Of a stretch of 64,000 nucleotides of DNA, positions 6,475 to 60,669 are shown piece after piece (the first letter of the stretch is position 1; each line of letters starts with the position of its first letter). The notes under the pieces were generated by a model. That model was not told the origin of the DNA and searched no databases. It saw only the letters and a list, made by a program, of their open reading frames with translations. Both the position numbers and the translations under genes were made by a program. Location of the stretch: contig NC_043017.1 of the NCBI RefSeq assembly GCF_006345805.1, positions 15,438,001 through 15,502,000 on the forward strand. The letters run 5' to 3'. Source of the DNA: Octopus sinensis (Eukaryota).

Positions 6475-6523
<49 letters not shown>

Positions 6524-7258
6524 GATAGATAGATAGATAGATAGATAGAAGGTAGATAGATAGAAAGATAGATGATATATATATATATATATTATATATA
6601 TATACTATATATATATATAATATATATATATCTTGGAATATATATATACACACATATATATTAGAGAGAGAAAGAAAGAGACTCATGCAGACATAAGACA
6701 GATACCGTATATGGTATATATTGTTATGCAAGCAAAATGGTACTCAGAAGAGTAACTTCAAAAATAGTAATCGTAAAAAGAAATATGTTGTGTGTGTGTA
6801 TACATAAATATATATGTATTATATATGTATATGTAGATAGATACACATAAATATACATACATACACGCACACACACACACACACATATAATACATATATA
6901 TATACATATATATATATATATACATACATAATATATATATATATATATATAATATATATATATATTATATATTACAATATATATATATATATATATATAA
7001 TATATCTATATATATATATAGATATATATATATATATATGCACACTACTTAAATACAATTCTTTTTTTATTTTGTAACGATGTTGAAATATTTTATATTT
7101 TTTAATTAAAAATATGTGTGTGTGTGTGTGTATACATGTTTATATATATATAATATATATATAATATAATATATATATATACTATATACATATATATATT
7201 TATATGCATGTTATATATAATTATGTATAGTGTGTATATATGTATGTACCTATCCCTG

Positions 7259-7315
<57 letters not shown>

Positions 7316-7817
7316 CACACACACACTCAGACACGTATATGTACATACATACATGTTGAGTAGGTTAACATTTTTATAGACATTTTCTTATATATACCTC
7401 GGCAAGAAATTAACTGGTATTTATATGTCTCGGTATGTGCAAGCGAGCATATCCACCATATGCGTCCTTTGTGTGCGCATGCGCTTGCCTGTCTGCAATC
7501 ATTATGATCGACTACGTGGGGGGGGGGGGGGCTGGTTTGTGTTCAATTAGAAGTGTTCGGTTAAGAATGTAGTTATACAGATACAGAATATACATACATA
7601 TATATATGTCTATATGTGCCTTTATATGTGTGTATATATGCACATATATATATTTCCCACACATACACTCACACACATGCATTGTGTGTATGTGTGTATA
7701 CATATATATATATATATATATTATATATATACACACATTTATATACATGCATATATACATACATACATACATACATACATATCACGAGGAGTGCCGGTAC
7801 TACTTAAAAACAGAATG

Positions 7818-13989: not shown

Positions 13990-14635
13990 AGAGACGTAGC
14001 TCGTGGCTTAGTGGTTAGGGTTTTCGGCTCAGGACCGTTAGACGGTGAATTCGATCCCCAGTGGTGTGTTGTGTCCTTGAGCAACACACTTCACTTTACG
14101 CTGCACCAGACCACTCAGCTGACTACAATGAGTTGTATCTGTGAGTTAAAAGAGGCCAGCCTCATCACATTCTCAGGCTCTTCTGCTAATCGTATCAACC
14201 GGAACACTCGTCGTCGTAACCGACGGGGTCCCAAGTATATAGATAGATAGATTTATATATGCAGGAGTGGATGTGTGGTAAGAAGCTTGCTTCCCAACCA
14301 CATGGTTCCGGGTTCAGACCCCTGCATGGCACCTTGAGCAAGTGTCTTCTATTATAACCTCGGGCCGACCAAAGCCTTGTGAGTGGATTTGGTAGACAGA
14401 AACTGAAGGAAGCCTGTCATGTGCATATATACATGTGTGTGTCTGTGTATGTGTGTGTGTTGTGTGTGTGCGTGCGTGCGTCTGTGTGTATTTGTGTATC
14501 TGTGTTTGTCCCCTCGCCGTCGCTTGACAACCGATGTTGGTGCCTTTACGTCCCCGTAAATTTGTGGTTCGGCAAAAGAGACCTGTAGAATAAATACTAG
14601 GCTTACAACGAATAAGTCCTGGGGTCGATTTGTTC
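13990..14635 (+). mobile_element. Two adjacent tRNA-derived SINEs (13990-14235 and 14260-14635)
   Basis: Heads TGGCTTAGTGGTTAGG..TTCGATCCC and GTGTGGTAAGAAGCTTGCTTCCCAACCACATGGTTCCGGGTTCAG, each followed by a CCTTGAGCAA core. Confidence 0.8.
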
Positions 14636-22796: not shown

Positions 22797-23749
22797 CATC
22801 TCCCTTTCTTTGATCTCCTAATTATAAAAACACCTAAGAACCAAATCATAACAGACATCTACCACAAATATACAGACTCACAACAATACCTCCTCTTTAG
22901 TTCATGCCACCCAAAACACACCAAGACAAATATCCCTTTCAACTTAGCTAAAAGGGTATGCACCATTGTCTCGGGTACAAAAACTCGAGAAATACGCCTT
23001 CAAGACCTCTAAAAACACTATTACAACGCCAATATCCCTCCACCCTTATAGAGTATGGAACAAAACGTGCCAAAGAACTAGACAACATTACACTGAAAAC
23101 CACCCAACCCAACAACACACACAACCCCAAAATACTTCCATACATTTCCACCCACAACCCCAAAAATATCGAAGCATACACCACAACCATACAAAACCAC
23201 ACTCTACCGTCAACAGATCCAAAAATGAAAAACATTATAAATACACACAAAATCCTCAAATGTAAAAGGCAACATAAATTTTTGAAAAAACCCTTGACAA
23301 ATGCCAAACTTCACACACCACATCCACCCCCAGCAGTTAAAAAATGTGCACGCCCAAACTGTGGTACCTGCTCCTTCCTACTTGAAGGCTCTGAATTTAT
23401 CTTCAAACAAGGAACTAAGTTTAAAATCAAGACCAACTTCTCCTGTTCCTCCGAGAACCTTATCTACGTTCTCACATGCGCCGGTTGCCAACATAATTAT
23501 GTTGGACAAACGAGCCTCCCTTTACGTAAACGAGTAGCAGTCCATAAAGAACAAATAAATATCCCAGAATACCGGCAAATTCCACTAAGTAGCCACATAG
23601 ACTCACGCGCTAAAGACAAAAATCCTAAATTTTACATATTCCCCTTCTACCAATGTAAAGACGGAATCACCACACAAAAGAGAATTAACAAGGAGAATCT
23701 TTTTATTAAAAAATTCAAAGCGCATCTTAATATGCAAACTCTTCGTTGA
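22797..23749 (+). pseudogene. PLE RT C-terminus plus GIY-YIG endonuclease (one frameshift near 23010)
   Basis: LPFFDLLI..TDIYHKYTDSQQYL.FSSCHP; Cys linker CARPNCGTC; CSSENLIYVLTCAGCQHNYVGQT..LRKRVAVH..E.LFIKKF. Confidence 0.93.
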
Positions 23750-25721: not shown

Positions 25722-28700
25722 ATCAGAAGAGTTCAATAAAGACAATGAAGCGAACATCTATGGGGGAGTAACAACGGACCCAGATGAAATATCGATACTT
25801 CAACTACCACCAAAGTATGCAGTGTATAGTAAGGTGAATACCATCAAATGCCTGTCCGAGATTGAAAAGTCGTTCACAAAAATACGTTGGAATTTAAATA
25901 GATACAATGACAACAACACTTGCGACAACAACAACAACGCGAAAAACACTAACCGCAGCAACAACAACACAAACAATAATGACCGCAGCAATAACAACCG
26001 TAGCAACAAAGCAACACGAACCCTAACAGCGGCAACAACAACAACATAGAAAATGTATGCATAGACACAAACAATAGATACAAAAACAAACACAAACAGA
26101 GAGAGAAAAATCGTATACAACAGCAACAACAACAACAAGTATAGGGAGAACCGACACACAAACACACACACAGATAGCCATAGTCACAAAGACACGAATA
26201 AAAGTTGTGTCATGGGGGTCACGATGGAGAATAAAGTTGAATGCAACAGGATCCTTGGACAGGGAGTCAGCAGACTTGAAACAGATAACAATACTCATAG
26301 AAACAAAAATAACGACCGCAACAGGGGGATTGACAGGGACCAACAGACAGACATAAAACCCAACACTAATATGAACTACACATATACCAGAAACAGGAAC
26401 AATGAATATATCACTAGCGATGATAGTAATAATGGCAATGGTAGGAATAAAGGTAATAACAATAATAGTGGTAGCAGTAGTGGTGATGGTAACAGTAGAA
26501 GTAGTAATGAGGATAGTAGTGATAGTTGTGGTGGTAATAGGAATAATAGTAGTAGTAGTAGTGGTAATGGTGATAATAATAATAGGAAGGCTGATGTTGG
26601 AAACAGTAACGATAATGAAGATAACCCTAGAAAGACCATTGACATGTATACCCATCCCTTTGACACTCAATTTTTCAACGTATGCCACAAAACTTACTGC
26701 ATGAACCGGATTTATCCAACAACATTACCCTTCAACAAAAGAGTATACATCCCAAGACGTACTAATGACCATATGGAAGCACAGTTCACTATAGCTAGGA
26801 CCAAACTTAGACAGATGTTAGGATTATACATTAAGAGACAGAGACAGAATAAGACAGATGCCCAACAACTCGGGATTAAACCTGCATGTGGCCTACAGAA
26901 GCTCATTCAGCGCACGAGGAACGGAGAGGTGGTATGCCTTCCCACGGATAAGTCCGGCAGGATGTCAATAGACAGCTTACCGAACTACATCCAGGCAATG
27001 CAACCTCATATCGCCAATACAAAAGTAACAACTGTACAGGCGCATGAGGAGAGAGAAAAGGTCCTCAATGCCCACATGATGATGTGGACAATTGTTCTGG
27101 GACCCCAGAAACGTACTGCAAAGAATTTCCAAGCCTGGAACAATGATATCCCGGCACTGTATGGACTTCGCAAGGACCATCAAGTAATTACTGACCCTAT
27201 AGCAGGACCACCAACAAGACCAGTCTGTGGAGCGAATATCGCTAGCAATTACAGAATCTCCTACTTGCTCTCAATGATCATACGCCCTATAATCAGGATG
27301 TCACCTGATGTGTGTGACAGCACAGAAGATCTCCTAACTGGATCAGTGACTGTAACAAAACTTGTGACTTGACAGGATGTATAGTAGGTAGCATGGATGG
27401 TGATCCCTATACCCATCGATTGACGTAGATTTTGCAGTGGAGAAGTGCGTGGAGATGATCAACGAGAGCCAGGTGGAGTTCTGTAATGTCGACACAGAAG
27501 AACTGGGCCTCCTACTTAGACTGACATATAATAATAATACTTAGATAAACATAATCTTAGTAGTTTCTGCCCCAAAGATGTTTAAGAGGTAGACCGCCTA
27601 CAATTACTTCTATGGCTAGGAAGACACATATAGAAAGATGGCGCGATGGACCAGAGCCATACGGAGCCCCGCAAATGTCCATCAGGTAAAGAAAATGATC
27701 GCACATGCACTAGGAGCTAGTATAAGAGTTACCCTAAAAGGCCACACATTTAAATTTAATAATAAAATATTGCCCAGGACGAGGGGGCAGCCATCGGTGT
27801 TAGTATCGCTGGTGATGTGGCCAACCTCTTCATGGTATGGTGGGACAGAAGGCTTAAAGAATGCCTACTGCAGAAATCCATACTCGTAAACATGTACTCT
27901 CGCTATGTTGATGATATCAACATAGTAGTAAAGGCACCCCCACAAGAGAGTAATGTTGATATAGTAATAGAAACTAATACTATGGAGAGCATCCAGCAAA
28001 TAGCTAACTCCATCCACCAGAGTATTAAGGTCACAATAGACTACCCCACTAAAACACCCCAACCATAGACTACCAGTACTAGACACTGAACTCTGGCTAG
28101 AAATTGTGAAAAATAAAACCCAAATCCTTCATTCATACTATGCAAAACCTATGGCCTCAAAATACCTGATCCACCGGAACTCAGCCATTGCGGCAATGCC
28201 AAATTCAATATTTTGATGGCAGACCTCGTCAGAATAATGAGAAATGTGTCACGCATGTGCGAGCCTACAGAATTAAAGAGACACATACAGTATTTCATTC
28301 ACCGCATGCAGTTCTCAGGTTACAGCCATAAAGAAAGGATCAGAGTATACAGAGCCATGAAAAATTTGATAATATATTATGTAATGATAGGAATGGGATT
28401 TGCCAATCTATAGGAACAAGTCATGGAACACTATAGAAAAGGACAAAAAGAAAATAGGGAAGGCCCACTCTTGGTATGATAGCCATAAATACCAGAGTGT
28501 CATGTTCGTTGACACCACCCCTGGAGGTGAACTGGCGTCCCGCTTTAGAAGGATCCTAGATAAACTTAAACTAAGAATTAAGGTTTTTGGAAAAGCCAGG
28601 CAACCCTATCAGATCTATATTGGTAGAACCTATCCTTTTAGTAGAACCCTCGTACGGATAACTATTGCACTGTATGTAGATTTAGCCCACAAACAAACTG

Positions 28701-32534: not shown

Positions 32535-33460
32535 GAGTGGCAGGCATGGCAGCGTTGTTAAGAAGCTTGGCTTGCAACCATGTGGCCTTAAGTTCAGTGC
32601 CAATGTGCAGCATCGAGGGCAGGGCAGGTGTCTTCTCCTATAGCTTCGGGTCAACCAAAGCCGTCTGAGTAGATAGCTTCTATTCTTTTATTTGTTTCAG
32701 TCATTTGACTGCGGCCATGCTGGAGCAGCGCCTTCAAGAACTCTCTCTAGTTGAACAAATCGACCCCAGGACTTGTTTCCGCCTACAAAATTCACTCAAA
32801 GGCTTTGATCATCCCCAGGCTACAGTAGAAGACAATACGCCAAGGTGCCATGCAGTGGGACTGAGCCCAGAACCATGTGGTTGGGAAGCAAGCTTCTTAC
32901 CGCAGAGCCATACCTGTGCTCATATAAACAGAAACCTAAAGAAGGCCCTCTTATGTACATACACACACACACACACACACATGTAGTTGTCTTTGTCCTT
33001 GTGTCTGTGCTCCACCACCATTTGACAACCGACATTAGTTTGTTTACGTCCCTGTAACTTTGTGGTTTTCAACTGAACCATTCAAGACGGCCCTTGCATG
33101 ACTGCAGTCCAAAGCCTGAAACAAGAAATAGAAAAAAAATGTGTGTGTGCGGGTGGGGTGTATGTATATGTGTGGTGGATATCTGTCGGTTTCGACGATG
33201 AAGATTCAGTTGGTATATCAAATGAATTACCTGCCCTTGAACTTGTCGACGTGGCTGAGTGTTTCACAGAACCAAAGCTACACAATGCGTGACAAGGCTG
33301 TACATTTTGAACTAAAGAGACAATTCGTCTCTCGAGATTCGGTACAGTTTCCCATTTCTGTAGCACTCACGGGATGTGAGTCGAACAAGGGAGTAGAAAA
33401 TTAGAAAATGTCAGTTAAGTAAGATGCCGCGCTGTGGGATCGAACCATACTTCATCCCAG
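32535..33460. mobile_element. Cluster of SINE fragments in both orientations
   Basis: Head at 32540 (+); tail and head at 32680-32915 (-); further pieces to 33460. Confidence 0.7.
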
Positions 33461-43892: not shown

Positions 43893-44673
43893 TGGCGTAA
43901 TGGTTAAGGTGTTGAACTTAACCATTGATCTGTAGAACGTGCTTCGATTCCGAGATTGAGCGATGTGGTTGTTCTTGAGCAAAACACTTCATTTCACGTT
44001 GCTCAACACCCCGCTTCCCCACCTCCCTTTCGATCGGGGGCGGATATTAGCCTGTTCACCAGGCCAGCGTGGTTAACTTCCTTTTCGAAAGCTAAAACGG
44101 TACTTAGCGCATTGTGTCCAGCGATGTATAACAGCATCTGATAGCCTGCTCGATCACGTGATCACTTAAGATACATTATCTATGTTGTGTTTTTCTATAT
44201 CAATATGTTGGGTAATATCCTTTTCTACTCTAGACACAAGGCCCGAAATTTTGGGGGAGGGGACCAGTCGATTAAATCGACCCCTGTTCGCAACTGGTAC
44301 TTAATTTATTGACATCGAAAGGATGAAAAGCAAAGTTGACCTCGGTGGAATTTGAACTCAGAACGTAGCGGCAGACGAAATACCTATTTCTTTACTACCC
44401 ACAAGGGGCTAAACATAGAGGGGACAAACAAGGACAGACAAACGGATTAAATCGATTACATCGACCCCAGTGCGTAACTGGTACTTAATTTATCTACCCC
44501 GAAAGGATGAAAGGCAAAGTCGACCTCGGCAGAATTTGAACTCAGAACGCAACGGCAGACGAAATACCGCTAAGCATTTCGCCCGGCGTGCTAACGTTTC
44601 TGCCAGCTCCCCAAAAAACCACCGGTTGAGAAGCAGTGGTAGGAGACAAACGCTAACAGAATGACACGCACAC

Positions 44674-44714
<41 letters not shown>

Positions 44715-45600
44715 TGTGTGTGTACACAACAGGCGTCTTTCAGTTTCCGTCAACCAAATCCACGCAATTGGCTTTGTCAGCTCGAAGCTACAGTAGAAGA
44801 CACTTGCCCAAGATGCCATCCAGTAGGATTGAACCCGGAACCATGAGCTTGATAAGCAAGCTTCTTATCACACAGCCACGCATACACCTATATGCTCTCT
44901 GGATGTTTAAATCTTTCTAGTATCGATATTATTTGGACGTCATAAGGCGGCGAGGAGCTGGCAGAAACGTTTGCACGCCGGGCGAAATGCTTAGCGGCAT
45001 TTCGTCTGCCGCTACGTTCTGAGTTCAAATTCCGCCGAGGTCGACTTTACCTTTCATTCTTTCGGGATCGATTAAATAAGTACGAGCTACGCACTGGGCT
45101 CGATATAATCGACTTAATCCATTTGTCTGTTTTTGTTTGTCCTCTCTGTGTTTAGCCCCCTCCCCCCCCCCCGCCCCTTGTGGGTAGTAAAGAAATGGGT
45201 AATTCCTCTGTCTTTATGTTCTGAGTTCAACTTCAGCCGAAATCAGCTTTGATAAAATAAGTACCAGTTAATCGACTAACCTCCACCACCACTCCTCGAA
45301 TTGCTGACCTTGAGCCAAAATTTAAAACCCAAAAAGTGAAGGGTATGACTTTGTACAAGCGTCTTGCACGAAGGCAGTTGCCCGACTAAAACCTTGCAAA
45401 TGGATTTGGTTGATGGAAAACAATGTAGAAATGCGTTGTGTATATATTTATATACATGGGTTGTGGTTAGGGTTTGTGTTTGTCTCAACATCGCTTGACA
45501 ACGCGAGTTGGTTTGTTTACTGCGGTCGATTTGTTCGAGTAAAGTTTTGCAAGCGGTGCCCCAGCATGGCTGGAATCCAGTAAACTGAAGCAAGTTATAG
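43893..45600. mobile_element. SINE cluster (43893-44165 +, 44220-44610 -, 44730-44880 -, 44945-45320 +, 45380-45600 +)
   Basis: Same families as 11043, 13990 and 14260. Confidence 0.8.
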
Positions 45601-49773: not shown

Positions 49774-50478
49774 TAGGGTGCGGTGAATAAATTGTCGCCT
49801 GAATTACGCAAAAATGAAAATAACACTGATACATCATTTTAACAGATATATTTACCAAAATTACTTTTAAATATCTTGAAATTCTGAAGAGTAAATTTAT
49901 TCAATAAAATCGCGATTGGCTTCAACCACGTCCTCCACACGACTTTGGAATCTCCTGCGACTCTTCTGGACGGTTTCCTTGTTTAAGTTGGTGAATGCTG
50001 CCATAAGCCTTGCTTTCAGTCATCTTCGGTGTTAAAAAGGAGTTTTGTTGGTCCCTTACTCAACTGCACTCCACACACAATAATTAAGGGGGTTGCAGTC
50101 TGGGAAGTTAGGTAACCAGATGTTAAGGGTGATGTGGTCGAAGAAATTTTCTGACCGCCATGACTGGGTTCTCCTGCTTGTGTGGCATGGTGCAGAGTCC
50201 TGTTGCCAGATATAGGGTCTTCCAGTAGCCACCCTGTTGACCCAGGACAGCACAACCTCTTCCAGGCACTTGATGTAGGCCTCCGTGTTGAGTCTAGGAC
50301 CGTGAAGGAAGATGAATGGAGGCATAATGTTGACATCACTGGTGATCACTCCAAACTCCATGATGTTGATTGGCTGTTTGATTTTTATCACTCTCGGTAC
50401 ATTTTTTGGGGACACGGCAAGCCAACGGTTGTTCTGCGCTTTACCCATCTGATCATGGCAGAAATTTTTCTCGTGCAA
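49774..50478 (-). mobile_element. maT (DD37D) Tc1/mariner-superfamily transposon 3' fragment
   Basis: WQQDSAPCH + 37-residue spacing to NPL(N)Y, third Asp mutated to Asn; TA|TAGGGTGCGG TIR-like end. Confidence 0.88.
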
Positions 50479-50654
50479 TAGAATTAATATTTGATTTTTC
50501 TCTCTGAAGAATTTCCACTAGGGAGGTATCTTACGTTTTTAACCGTCGTATGCAATTTTGTAATTCCTATTCGCAAATGAAATATGCATAATGGTGAATA
50601 AATAATAAATAATACAGAGCAATTTTCTACCTTCCTGTTTCGATATGTATATAT

Positions 50655-50940: not shown

Positions 50941-51095
50941 ATGACGGGCTTCTTTCAGTTTCCGTCTACCAAATCCACTCACAAGGCTTTGGTCGGCCCG
51001 TGGCTATAGTAGAAGACAATTGCCCAAGGTGCCACACTGAACCTGGAACCATGTGTTTGGCAAGCAAGCTACTTACCACGCAGCCACTCCTGCGC
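50655..51095 (-). mobile_element. Full-length tRNA-derived SINE with internal microsatellite
   Basis: Reverse complement of the 14260-14635 family plus the tail seen at 1-70. Confidence 0.85.
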
Positions 51096-57212: not shown

Positions 57213-57364
57213 CGTCGTCGTTGTCGTCGTCATAGTTGTTGTTCTCGTTCTTGTAGTAAATCACTGTGTTCTGGAAGACGATAGCAATGTAGAGAGACAA
57301 CTAAATATCAAAAATCCACAACAGGCAAGATACTGAAATGTTATTTTAGAAATATTGAATTAGT

Positions 57365-57400
57365 GCTGATATTTCGAGTTAAACGCTCATCTTCAAGAGC
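57365..57400 (-). ncRNA. Minimal hammerhead-like motif, variant
   Basis: GCU-CUUGAAGA-U-GAG..CUC-GAAA-UA-UC-AGC; short stems. Confidence 0.35.
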
Positions 57401-57569
57401 TTTAAAGAACAAGACACAAATGTAAACTGTGACAATTTTGTTGGTATTTTGAACCCTTGTGAGCGATATTCAAATTGCCACAGGTTTAGAATTGTAGAAG
57501 TTTAGGACTGTAGAGATTTGTGAATTATTTTTAGTCTAAGTATCGAGCGTGCTGGAGGTATCTTTTTTT

Positions 57570-58140
57570 TTCTTTTTAAAGCACAATGAGGCTATAAACC
57601 GCGTACATAGTTCAATATTGAAAATAATCACAAAAACGAGGCAATAAACCTTTCACTATTTTTTACATTTTGTAGACTCTTTTTTAGTACAAACGTCCAA
57701 TATTTCAAGTTTTCCGTCAGATCAGGCTCCTTGCTTCATCGAAGCATCTATTCGGTTCCAGGCCGGACCACTTGGCCATATATCTAAAGGGGTCCGCTGG
57801 GAAGGAATTCATTATCCTGCACAGATCGTTGTCCCATAAGACCTCCGCAGGCAAAGAAATTAATTTTCGGCCGAAAGGTACTCCTGGCCAATAATCCACA
57901 AAAAATACAACATTTTCTCACAATTATGTGAGACAACACACACGTCTCCAAAAAGCTCCGAATCCAGTAAGGACTCCTTTCCTGTTCAAAAAATAAAACC
58001 AACAGGCAACAAATCCTACTGGACTCAAAGAGCAAAAAGTCTTACCTAACGGTAGAGCGTCTTTCAATTCAATTTTCGCCAGCTGCACACCAGCGTGACG
58101 ACTTCAAGGGCACAGAGAAGAACACTGAACAACCGGAACC
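57570..58140 (-). mobile_element. 5' end (UTR plus ORF1 start) of a second Tx1/L1-like element, truncated
   Basis: Begins GGTT right after the AAGAAGCTTGCTTCC target like its neighbour; weak ORF1-like MAKW..LTENLKYWTFVL. Confidence 0.45.
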
Positions 58141-58155
58141 GGAAGCAAGCTTCTT

Positions 58156-60134
58156 TATTTCATTTAATTTGCCACAAGGGCAGCACACAGAGAGAAGCTC
58201 TGGACATGTGGACATGTGGTCTGGACATGGACAAGATGAGATGAAATGAAATAAAAGGATGCGGATGAGAGGTATGTCGGCGCCCACCAACCGACAAACC
58301 CTCGAATACAAAGTTTCTTACAACAATACAAAGTTTCTTACAACAATTCTCTTTGTCAGGTCCCCCAAGCAATGAGACTTGCCGCCTGCAGACAACTCTG
58401 CATCGACAAGTCGGGGCCTGCAAAGAAGAAAGCAAATTCTTCCTTGTCAAAGGTCGTTGTGACCTTTGACAAATTTCTTTCAGTTACTACCTCCGCAGAC
58501 CGAGTACACACGTTCTCGGTCACACAAGCCGTCCAAAAATTTACTCACCGTCCCTCCCTCGTGGTAAAGGAGGAGAAACACCTCCTCTTCACAGGAAGGG
58601 ACCTCACACTGCTCCGTCAGTGGCACACTTCCCACTCACAGAGCCCTATCCGCAGGTGGCAGACATCCCACCTGCGGCTCCGTCGGCGGCCCAGGAACAT
58701 CCGCCGACCGTACTCTATTTTCTCTTTCTTTTTGAGGCTGCGGGAGCAGGGGGCTGCGTCGACAGACGCGGGGGGTCGGTACCCTCTTCCGCCGCCTGAA
58801 CATTCTTTGGTGAGCAACCATTGTTACTCACCTTTCTTTTTCTTTTCGTGGAGGCAACTTCCTCCACGACTTCCACCGTCTCCCCCTCCAATGAGGGGGC
58901 GGCGGGCACCTTCTTTTTCTCATGCTCCAGGGCCCCACCATGGCCCCTGGACAGTTCCTTTTGATATGGATAGGCTCCAGGCACAGGTGACACTTGGGGG
59001 GGGGGCGTCCTCCAAGTATCACCGGCCATTTTGGGGGTCGTCCTTCAAGTATCACCGGCCATTTTAGGAAATCCGGAAACATCATGTCTCCCACGGCCAC
59101 CGGGGTCCACAGGGTCAAAGTTGCCTTTGACCCCTCCCAGTCGACCGCGGGATTAATCTTCACATTCAATAGTCTGAGCCCGCTTCCCCCAGGCCTCGCC
59201 GGATGGTCTTCTCGATCCAGCCCGCCTCCGTGCCCGGGGGCAGCCAGCACACCCAGGCTCTTCTTATCTTCCTCCCACAATAAGTGGGGAGGAACAAAAT
59301 CTCTTCTCCCTCAAGGGGCTCACTTGCAAATCTGCCAGCTTCCTCGGGGGTACCAAACAGCAACCAGACCGTTGCAAATTTGGTCCCCCGTGAAATAAAT
59401 TTTATATTTGGCAGGTAGTCTGCCAACTCTCTCTCTATCACGCTCTTGTCGAAGAGGGCGATGGCACCACACGACCTAGAATAGGTCCGTAGTACCACCG
59501 TCCTCTTCTCAAGATCTTTAATCCACTGTTTGGGTGGGACCACCTCCCACTCCAAAACAGCGGCACCGTTTGTTTTTGCCATGTGCAAAAAAAAACGTCT
59601 TAAAAGTTAAAAAAAAAGTTCAAAGTTCAAAGAGAATGCAAAAAAAAAACAAAATAACAAACAAAAAACAAAAAACAAAAACAAAGTAAGTCCAAAAATT
59701 AATTAATAGTTCAAAGGGAAGGAAAAAATCAGGAAGGATAAACGGAAAAAATAAAACAGTTCACACAGCAAAAATCCAATCTCCTGGTCAACAGGTAATC
59801 CCGGCCTAATGTGGATAGGTTCCTTTTTTGTTGTCCGGTAATTCAAACACAATACAGCCAACGGTAGATGCAACAGCAACAGGTTCTATTCGGGCGGGGA
59901 TACGCCCCTCCAAAAATGAATACAATAATTCTCAATACACAAAAACAGCAGCCGCCGAGAGCAGGCGAAATTGTCCCAGAGCTGGGCACAATTTACTGAA
60001 AAAATATAATTCGCACGCAATAAATTATGCCCAGCTCACAACAAACAAAATCATCTACCTCGGCAACCTTCTCTGTTTTTGTTCTTTTTTCTTTTAAGGA
60101 CGGAGCTCAAAGCTCACGTCCTCACTGTTCAACC
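58156..60134 (-). mobile_element. ORF1-only Tx1/L1-like non-LTR retrotransposon inserted in a SINE head
   Basis: Flanked by direct repeat GGAAGCAAGCTTCTT (58141-58155, 60135-60149); 5' UTR, ORF1, short 3' tail TTGTGGCAAATTAAATGAAATAA; no ORF2. Confidence 0.8.
58260..59582 (-). pseudogene. LINE ORF1 (gag-like) protein with CCHC zinc knuckle, frameshifted
   Basis: MAKTNG..LEKRTVVLRTY..FLPTYCGRK..WPVILEGRPPK x2, CHLCLEPIHIKRNC (C-x2-C-x4-H-x4-C), then a basic KRKRK stretch; 3' end approximate. Confidence 0.75.
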
Positions 60135-60353
60135 GGAAGCAAGCTTCTTACCACGCGGCCATGCTTACTAAATGTAAATATATGCATGTATATATATATG
60201 TTTGTTTGTGTATGCATGCATGCATGCATGCATGTATGTATGTATGTATGTATGTATGTATGCATGCATGTATGTATGTATGTATGTATGTATGTATGTA
60301 TGTATGTATGTATGTATGTATGTACATAGGTAGGCATGTAGGTAGGTATGTAG

Positions 60354-60669
60354 CAGTGGCGGACTGGCCAGGTTGCCAGCTTGCCCAATGCAAGTGGGCC
60401 CCTGCACCATTAGAATCCATATATAGGGGCCCATGTTAGTATCTAAGGGGCCCATTCCCTTAAGTTTGAGAATTTTTTATTCACTCCTGGAAGAATGCAT
60501 TAATTATTTCAGCCTGGCTGTGTTTGTAGACAGGTGAAAAGAATACTTTTAACAAAACAAAATTAAATGATAGCATTGTAGTTGTGGGTGGGCCCCTCCC
60601 TTAGTCTCCTGGGTGGGTCCCTCCCTTAGTCTCCTGGCAACCAATATTTTTAGACCCAGTCTGCCACTG
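60354..60669. mobile_element. hAT-type MITE
   Basis: TIRs CAGTGGCGGACTGG / CCAGTCTGCCACTG (13/14); 8 bp target-site duplication GTATGTAG / GTAGGTAG; internal 25 bp duplication. Confidence 0.82.

Follow-up and report, generated by a model that had tools for sequence, protein, structure and literature searches.

A probable ORF1-only derivative of L1-group LINEs sited in the tRNA-like head of a SINE in Octopus sinensis

The window analysed here is a stretch of 64,000 nucleotides of Octopus sinensis DNA (contig NC_043017.1). The order of features proposed in an earlier note, made from the sequence alone, was recovered at the claimed places on the minus strand: a SINE head, the 15-mer AAGAAGCTTGCTTCC (upstream copy at 60149-60135, minus), an element of approximately 2 kb starting with GGTT, the 15-mer again, and a second element starting with GGTT (Table 1). 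Element 1 carries, as had been claimed, an ORF1 with a CCHC motif (58992-58951) and no ORF2, and no similarity to ORF2 was found in the window. Its ORF1 remnant aligned by tblastn with the intact ORF1 of locus L076 at 54% and 34% identity. A tandem duplication of approximately 33 bp was observed in the remnant at about 59000-59070 (minus), just before the zinc knuckle. Element 1 is also a mosaic, since its first 62 nt (60073-60134) and last 44 nt (58156-58199) match other subfamilies at 92-100%, and several of its closest body relatives have different ends. The second element has the GGTT start ascribed to it, but is not the different element it was taken for: it is a relative of element 1, internally deleted and clipped at the 3' side. 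Two segments of a related family are recognizable in it, one of ~290 bp from the start and another of ~290 bp from a late part, with an internal deletion of ~1.2 kb between them at about 57850. Together with ~230 bp of its 3' end, the tail, the third target copy and the SINE body are lost; the absence of the rest of the SINE beyond this element had been pointed out before. The next SINE-body motif past element 2 belongs to a separate SINE at 51059. One contig of run X3 reaches 28 bases across the clipped end, too few to count as bridging, which leaves a residual possibility of an assembly error at this end.

Table 1. Positions of the stacked elements, their parts and the target copies in the window.
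Feature	Position	Strand	Remark
Box-A-like 5' part of target SINE head, left upstream of insertion	60150..60164	-	tRNA-colinear head
Upstream target 15-mer	60135..60149	-	~9-11 nt at the start are duplicated target, the final nt probably come from the element
Element 1, full-length inactivated ORF1-only LINE derivative	58156..60134	-	1,979 bp, starts GGTT
Element 1 5' UTR	59583..60134	-	552 nt; first 62 nt also head other subfamilies
Element 1 ORF1 remnant	58546..59582	-	frameshifted near 59190; tblastn vs intact L076 ORF1
CX2CX4HX4C zinc knuckle codons in ORF1	58951..58992	-	C, C, H, C invariant in alignment
Element 1 3' tail, common to two-ORF partners	58156..58197	-	4-bp hairpin at 58182-58170
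Second target 15-mer, between stacked elements	58141..58155	-	exact copy
Element 2, related ORF1-only subfamily	57563..58140	-	starts GGTT; internally deleted, 3'-clipped
Empty target, uninterrupted SINE	14280..14294	+	
Empty target, uninterrupted SINE	32884..32898	-	
Empty diverged target, uninterrupted SINE	44852..44866	-	
Empty target, AAGTAG-type SINE subfamily	51060..51074	-	

At no more than 2 mismatches the 15-mer has 6 matches in the window vs 0.03 expected. The four copies outside the stack all lie within uninterrupted SINEs, and at 14280 and 32884 the head runs on into CAACCAC, as had been described for uninterrupted heads. The SINE head aligned end to end with genomic tRNAs (27 genes, six isotypes), best with Lys-TTT at z 5.7, and relaxed ARAGORN called a tRNA in 8 of 30 SINE heads vs 1 of 150 shuffles. 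Neither Rfam nor default ARAGORN gave a tRNA call on the SINE head, and by inspection the 15-mer is absent from all 27 genomic tRNA genes. In the SINE head the 15-mer begins at the A that follows the D-loop GGT and reaches as far as the anticodon-equivalent, a site which, by the box consensus, lies between box A and box B of the SINE. The anticodon-like insertion point suggested earlier is thus right for the 5' joint but not for the 3' joint, which marks the first nick in TPRT and lies just after box A. At four loci (L090, L100, L106 and L108, near 1506) the SINE's own sequence was seen directly before the 15-mer, with tandem SINEs restarting at the same base; these may be products of insertion or of duplication at the DNA level.

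Three samples of copies were picked without regard to flanks, by element 1 DNA, by tail and by ORF1 protein. With element 1 as query, 40 of 1,862 candidates were scored and gave 30 loci, the window included. The 3' junction of tail and target was present in 26 of these, the target stood behind a SINE head or another tail on the 5' side in 23 (one spurious call was dropped), and 21 had both ends, 1.3-2.5 kb apart. The exact window tail has 57 matches in the genome, and among the first 30 read the target followed directly (<=3 mismatches; background in the window 0.13%) in 27, while the remaining three missed the target cut-off. Loci L391-L393 have identical flanks on one contig and represent a segmental duplication; with this triplicated locus counted once, the tally is 25/28. 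The protein sample comprised 20 loci spread by hand over the best 150 ORF1-protein matches, with a junction within ~2 kb in 19 and ORF2 in none. The flanks of other copies, which the earlier note wished to see tabulated for the 15-mer, are therefore the same rather than unrelated, and with ORF2 consistently absent its non-autonomous ORF1-only family on an abundant SINE is borne out. The proportions obtained, 27/30 by tail, 19/20 by protein and 28/40 for the ORF2-selected loci described below, exceed the >20% of flanks which PMC4494074 gives for sequence-specific insertion into a multicopy target. Exact counts over the genome yielded 117 window-type junctions, 1,051 tail-target junctions with degenerate target and 71,120 exact empty SINE heads, whereas reversed-pattern controls gave 0. 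The ratio of exact matches, a rough one as the patterns are of unequal length, puts the occupied SINE heads at ~1.5%, and the effect on the host is therefore probably small.

The junctions were surveyed at 60 loci from the first 64 of the 1,051 (3 already sampled were left out, 2 rows were merged). ORF1-only copies, with ORF1 ~270-840 bp from the 3' end, made up 34 of the 60, ORF2 sequence was found in 14, and 12 had no ORF match. The SINE body followed in 55/60. Twelve 5'-truncated copies of 37-1,497 bp stood directly behind the SINE head, with 0-15 bp of target repeated. On the 5' side no SINE head was found where library homology ended in 20/35 loci, which may reflect target deletion, later insertion or library gaps. 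The fixed 3' end, the variable 5' truncation and the target duplication are all features of TPRT. That most copies have the SINE head on their 5' side and the SINE body on their 3' side could also be explained by a single ancestral SINE-LINE chimera amplified as a unit, without repeated targeting. We consider this very improbable. The truncated copies argue against it, a test of hitchhiking that Kojima used in the part of PMC4494074 dealing with such copies: the twelve have different breakpoints and, together with many subfamilies, sit at the same base, which is shared by three ORF1-only lineages and by two-ORF elements. In addition, the two target copies of a locus tend to carry the same variant (at position 4 of the 15-mer they agree in 0.95 of 57 loci vs 0.50 expected), and stacks mix families. 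Stacks of two to four ORF1-only copies within one SINE were seen (L356, L368-L370), and L358 has an ORF1-only copy with the start of a two-ORF element behind it. No excess of stacking over chance was detected (4/60 vs 2.9% expected, p=0.10).

The 15-bp target duplication of the earlier note stands in so far as 15-mers are present on both sides, but its full length is only an upper limit, because it is often the element that supplies the last few bases of the upstream 15-mer. This was observed in the partner family. CTAAC ends 65 of 70 5' junctions in the youngest partner family, with one extra base in 25. Among 20 further loci of this young family, 16 had both ends and 8 had a TTAC-type 3' copy; CTAAC was found at the 5' side despite the TTAC-type 3' copy in 7 of 8 informative loci. 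5' junctions lacking CTAAC (5/70) were significantly rarer than TTAC-type 3' copies among the two-ended loci (8/16; p=2e-4). At L029, L308, L015 and L364 a complete target is followed by a new element opening with 4-14 more target-like bases. An extra unpaired tag was counted in 1/125 junctions by a strict rule, and in three more by eye (L015, L364 and L308). L333 and L074 have the full 15-bp duplication with a shared private variant, so that not every insertion makes use of the tag. Often the true duplication measures 9-12 bp, while it is longer in these two loci. Since the 5' ends of the elements carry target-like bases of their own, the start of the RNA is likely to lie among the upstream duplicated bases. 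The pattern GTGGTAAGTAGCTTGCTTCCG, tried for tagged junctions, was discarded, as 23/30 loci were empty SINE variants.

A FastTree of 49 ORF1 cores was built from two-ORF and ORF1-only elements, leaving out 12 near-copies of one family, 2 short rows and 2 without ORF1. The window ORF1 was placed in a single branch of 30 ORF1-only rows with 100% SH-like support, and three ORF1-only rows fell outside it. ORF1s of this clade are 19-26% identical to every sampled two-ORF ORF1, and no parent element, i.e., no partner ORF1 close to that of the clade, was found among the sampled two-ORF elements. Two further ORF1-only lineages (L115, L116, L082, L275) with the same tail and target were observed, their ORF1s lying outside the window clade; two or three separate origins are probable. 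Median dN/dS between subfamilies was 0.19 (127 deep pairs, dS>0.7), and five near-intact ORF1 pairs gave 0.14-0.29, values from pairs that are not independent, with dS near saturation and poorly aligned codons filtered out. Open frames of ~400 aa are kept in many ORF1 matches. ORF1 is under purifying selection and the clade is old. One could still regard the ORF1-only copies as recurrent or one-off deletions of two-ORF elements instead of an independent lineage: two-ORF copies with internal deletions are present (L111, L158, L288, L340), element 2 is itself a deletion product, and, as the best 150 ORF1 matches were scored, a rare two-ORF parent is possible. A one-off deletion, named in the earlier note as one of two outcomes that would speak against its reading, does not agree with an old, diversified clade that is so distant from the partner ORF1s and has a dN/dS of about 0.2. 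The separate position of the clade, the selection between ORF1 subfamilies and the lack of ORF2 in all 20 loci leave deletions of either kind scarcely credible, and we treat the ORF1-only elements as a lineage, referred to below as half-LINEs.

The core of an intact relative of the window ORF1 gave a predicted fold with a mean pLDDT of 80.6, which matched tandem-RRM proteins (best E 3e-4, low TM). ORF1 is thus predicted to comprise a tandem RRM in its N-terminal part and a CCHC knuckle. Pfam gave no L1 ORF1 match on the ORF1-only protein and recognized the zinc knuckle at sub-threshold level only. The sole database homologue of the window ORF1 is octopus-named. Many families start with CTTCCGG or with words like GCGCATGCG, which resemble ETS and NRF1 sites and hint at an internal Pol II promoter. 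Capture of a promoter from the partners found no support, as the 5' UTRs are not shared (1 short match in 34 x 9 comparisons).

A relaxed tail pattern retrieved two loci with ORF2-like peptides adjoining the target, and a search with one of them gave 169 matches, of which the best 20 and 20 hand-picked ones were read. The same tail and target end 28 of these 40 loci, whereas 8 have different tails or flanks and 4 are clipped or interrupted. The autonomous partner sharing the tail, which the earlier note advised to look for, was thus found in the form of two-ORF elements, and these use the same target as well. Full-length copies of ~5.4 kb have ORF1 (zf-CCHC) and ORF2, the latter with the Pfam domains Exo_endo_phos, RVT_1 and zf-RVT; the best PDB match of ORF2 was human L1 ORF2p (E 1.6e-66), with R2 at 4e-20. 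According to these matches the partner is an L1 group LINE with ORF1 and ORF2 and a predicted APE endonuclease, RT and C-terminal zinc domain. Relatives were found in argonaut (65% over the RT region) and in fish and sea cucumber (40%). Tx1-labelled references were not among its homologue matches, and an Atlas search returned generic APE-RT clusters only. A CCHC-type ORF1 is a feature of the Tx1 clade, and the tentative label Tx1 for the partner is based on this ORF1 type and the target specificity. At the DNA level half-LINEs and partners have almost nothing in common beyond the last ~40 nt. This tail forms a putative 4-bp hairpin, 89% paired with 22 double changes, a level reached by 0/500 shuffles and above all slid controls, in a helix chosen by eye in the related sequences that also served for the test. 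Of 56 distinct tails 45 were used as rows; the 11 that were dropped had ends that were duplicated, clipped or not those of an element. A second abundant SINE (window 44340-44640, minus) resembles the two-ORF partner closely in its tail and occurs in tandem; in L107 its tail adjoins the same target. It may be another passenger of the same LINE group.

Sister two-ORF lineages (L179, L161, L168-L170, L173, L180, positions 6500-7400 as oriented) have tail ends like AATAAAGAAA and, in place of the SINE, adjoin (CT)n or (TTCA)n, additional LINE copies or repeats of another kind. They are natural controls for endonuclease specificity. With the family structure unchanged, the site could be set by RNA-DNA pairing, in which read-through or leader bases match the SINE, or by tethering to Pol III factors on SINEs, and not by a sequence preference of the endonuclease. 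Pairing would agree with the A's of the tail end overlapping the first target bases, with the AATAAAGAAA ends of the sister lineages, which resemble tail plus target, and with the target bases at the 5' end of element RNAs. The window-type tail is furthermore found mostly on AAGAAG-type SINEs, which make up 6 of the first 100 exact empties; this bias is, however, explicable by differing ages of the SINE subfamilies. Leaderless 5'-truncated copies sit at the same base, and the CTAAC-tagged young partner family uses TTAC-type targets as often as they are present (8/16 vs 37/94, p=0.43), figures that likewise give no support to steering of the choice between TAAC and TTAC by the 5' tag. We consider placement by pairing or tethering unlikely.

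Element 1 is, with good confidence, a dead copy from an ORF1-only clade of the L1 group that is sited in the SINE head, and it was likely inserted by the endonuclease-RT of a two-ORF partner with which it shares 3' tail and target. According to the mechanism we propose, the RNA would start inside the upstream duplicated SINE bases and make its own ORF1p coat, while ORF2p of the partner would bind the tail hairpin of the half-LINE RNA. At GGT^AAG, directly behind box A, ORF2p would then nick the bottom strand and start reverse transcription, with the top strand cut about 9-15 nt further on. By way of the SINE-derived leader the cDNA end could pair with the target, and an apparent 15-bp duplication would be restored. 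Each insertion would part box A from box B and silence the SINE copy, and it would leave reusable sites, as a result of which later elements are proposed to stack head to tail. An extended version seems possible, though we lean against it: a LINE system that hunts SINEs, with an APE endonuclease choosing one base between the Pol III boxes, silencing of the SINEs, an R2-like leader, taken over from the site of the preceding insertion, that seals the 5' joint, and an ancient ORF1-only clade outnumbering the enzyme donors. If true, this would be a parasite of a parasite landing in a third parasite.

HeT-A, with its telomere arrays, is the nearest case of a targeted and stacked element. It differs in being Jockey-derived; ORF1-only LINEs are described in sections of PMC5753468 and PMC5786205 from L1 (HAL1), Jockey (HeT-A) and CR1 (Ag-Sponge). 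The octopus elements resemble these, in the same descriptions, as non-autonomous LINE derivatives that encode ORF1p alone, in several independent origins, and in an ORF1p proposed to work with partner proteins. In contrast to them, they have an ORF1 predicted as RRM-RRM-CCHC, occupy one fixed base of a dispersed SINE, and share a structured tail rather than poly(A). As in HAL1-type elements, ORF2 is lacking across the family, the lineage is its own and under selection, and the 3' end is shared with an autonomous LINE. The octopus element works like HAL1 but is not HAL1 proper, given the absence of a Pfam L1 ORF1 match and the predicted tandem RRM plus CCHC fold.

Tx1 is known as target-specific (PMC3747384, in the passage concerned), and targets mentioned in PMC4494074 are piggyBac, Mariner, Harbinger and LTR elements, U2 genes and microsatellites. 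The kinds of target listed there for the Tx1 group are DNA transposons, LTR elements, snRNA genes and microsatellites, while the octopus target is a SINE. Tx1-Mar, Tx1 in Tx1D, Keno, Kibi and Koshi are, as presented in the same source, likewise L1-group LINEs that target another repeat. The crocodilian SINEU-3 stacks at the Tx1-Mar site, so that a non-autonomous passenger uses the same site and tandem insertions sandwich the duplication, as in octopus; the passenger of Tx1-Mar is a non-coding SINE, whereas that in octopus is a protein-coding half-LINE (part of PMC4494074). Independent insertion by truncated copies is another likeness to Tx1-group elements, and the octopus sister lineages adjoin microsatellites, a target of that group (PMC4494074, same part). 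For R2, a portion of PMC3774820 sets out that 5' bases of the RNA derived from the target (upstream 28S) are proposed to anneal to it and give uniform 5' junctions. Octopus element RNAs appear to have a target-derived 5' leader, for which annealing is likewise proposed. R2 has a restriction-like endonuclease, a ribozyme and rDNA co-transcription (PMC3774820, same portion), while the octopus system is APE-type with a leader of about 3-14 nt. The system thus combines known parts, those of HAL1/HeT-A and of Tx1-Mar/SINEU-3. In the main text of a 2026 octopus repeat annotation (PMC13282606), 13 recently active L1-Tx1 families are given, and the words "target" and "nested" do not appear in it. Our literature search found neither a LINE targeting a SINE nor a targeted ORF1-only Tx1 derivative; Repbase, Dfam or supplements may hold such entries.

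SINEs would be added by this system to the known targets of sequence-specific L1-group LINEs, together with a protein-coding half-LINE of strict site choice. The role of ORF1p for a passenger element and the origin of APE endonuclease specificity become testable in one system, the latter because this genome also has sister lineages with other targets. The 5' bases brought by the element suggest that APE elements, too, may use homologous 5' joining of the R2 style, and that "TSD" lengths, as measured, can be misleading. Young partner copies that are nearly intact would supply a site-specific integrase, for which at least 70,000 sites are dispersed in the genome; this may be useful in cephalopod transgenesis.

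Among the remaining features of the window, the open frames 22952-23749, 26065-27372 and 50056-50517 resemble what we take to be Penelope-type (GIY-YIG, RT-adjacent) and Tc1/mariner remnants. Both stacked elements (window 57300-60400) are covered by contigs of three other organism labels (runs X3, X5 and X7), mostly at 85-99% identity, and because of these matches the family is not confined to this genome.
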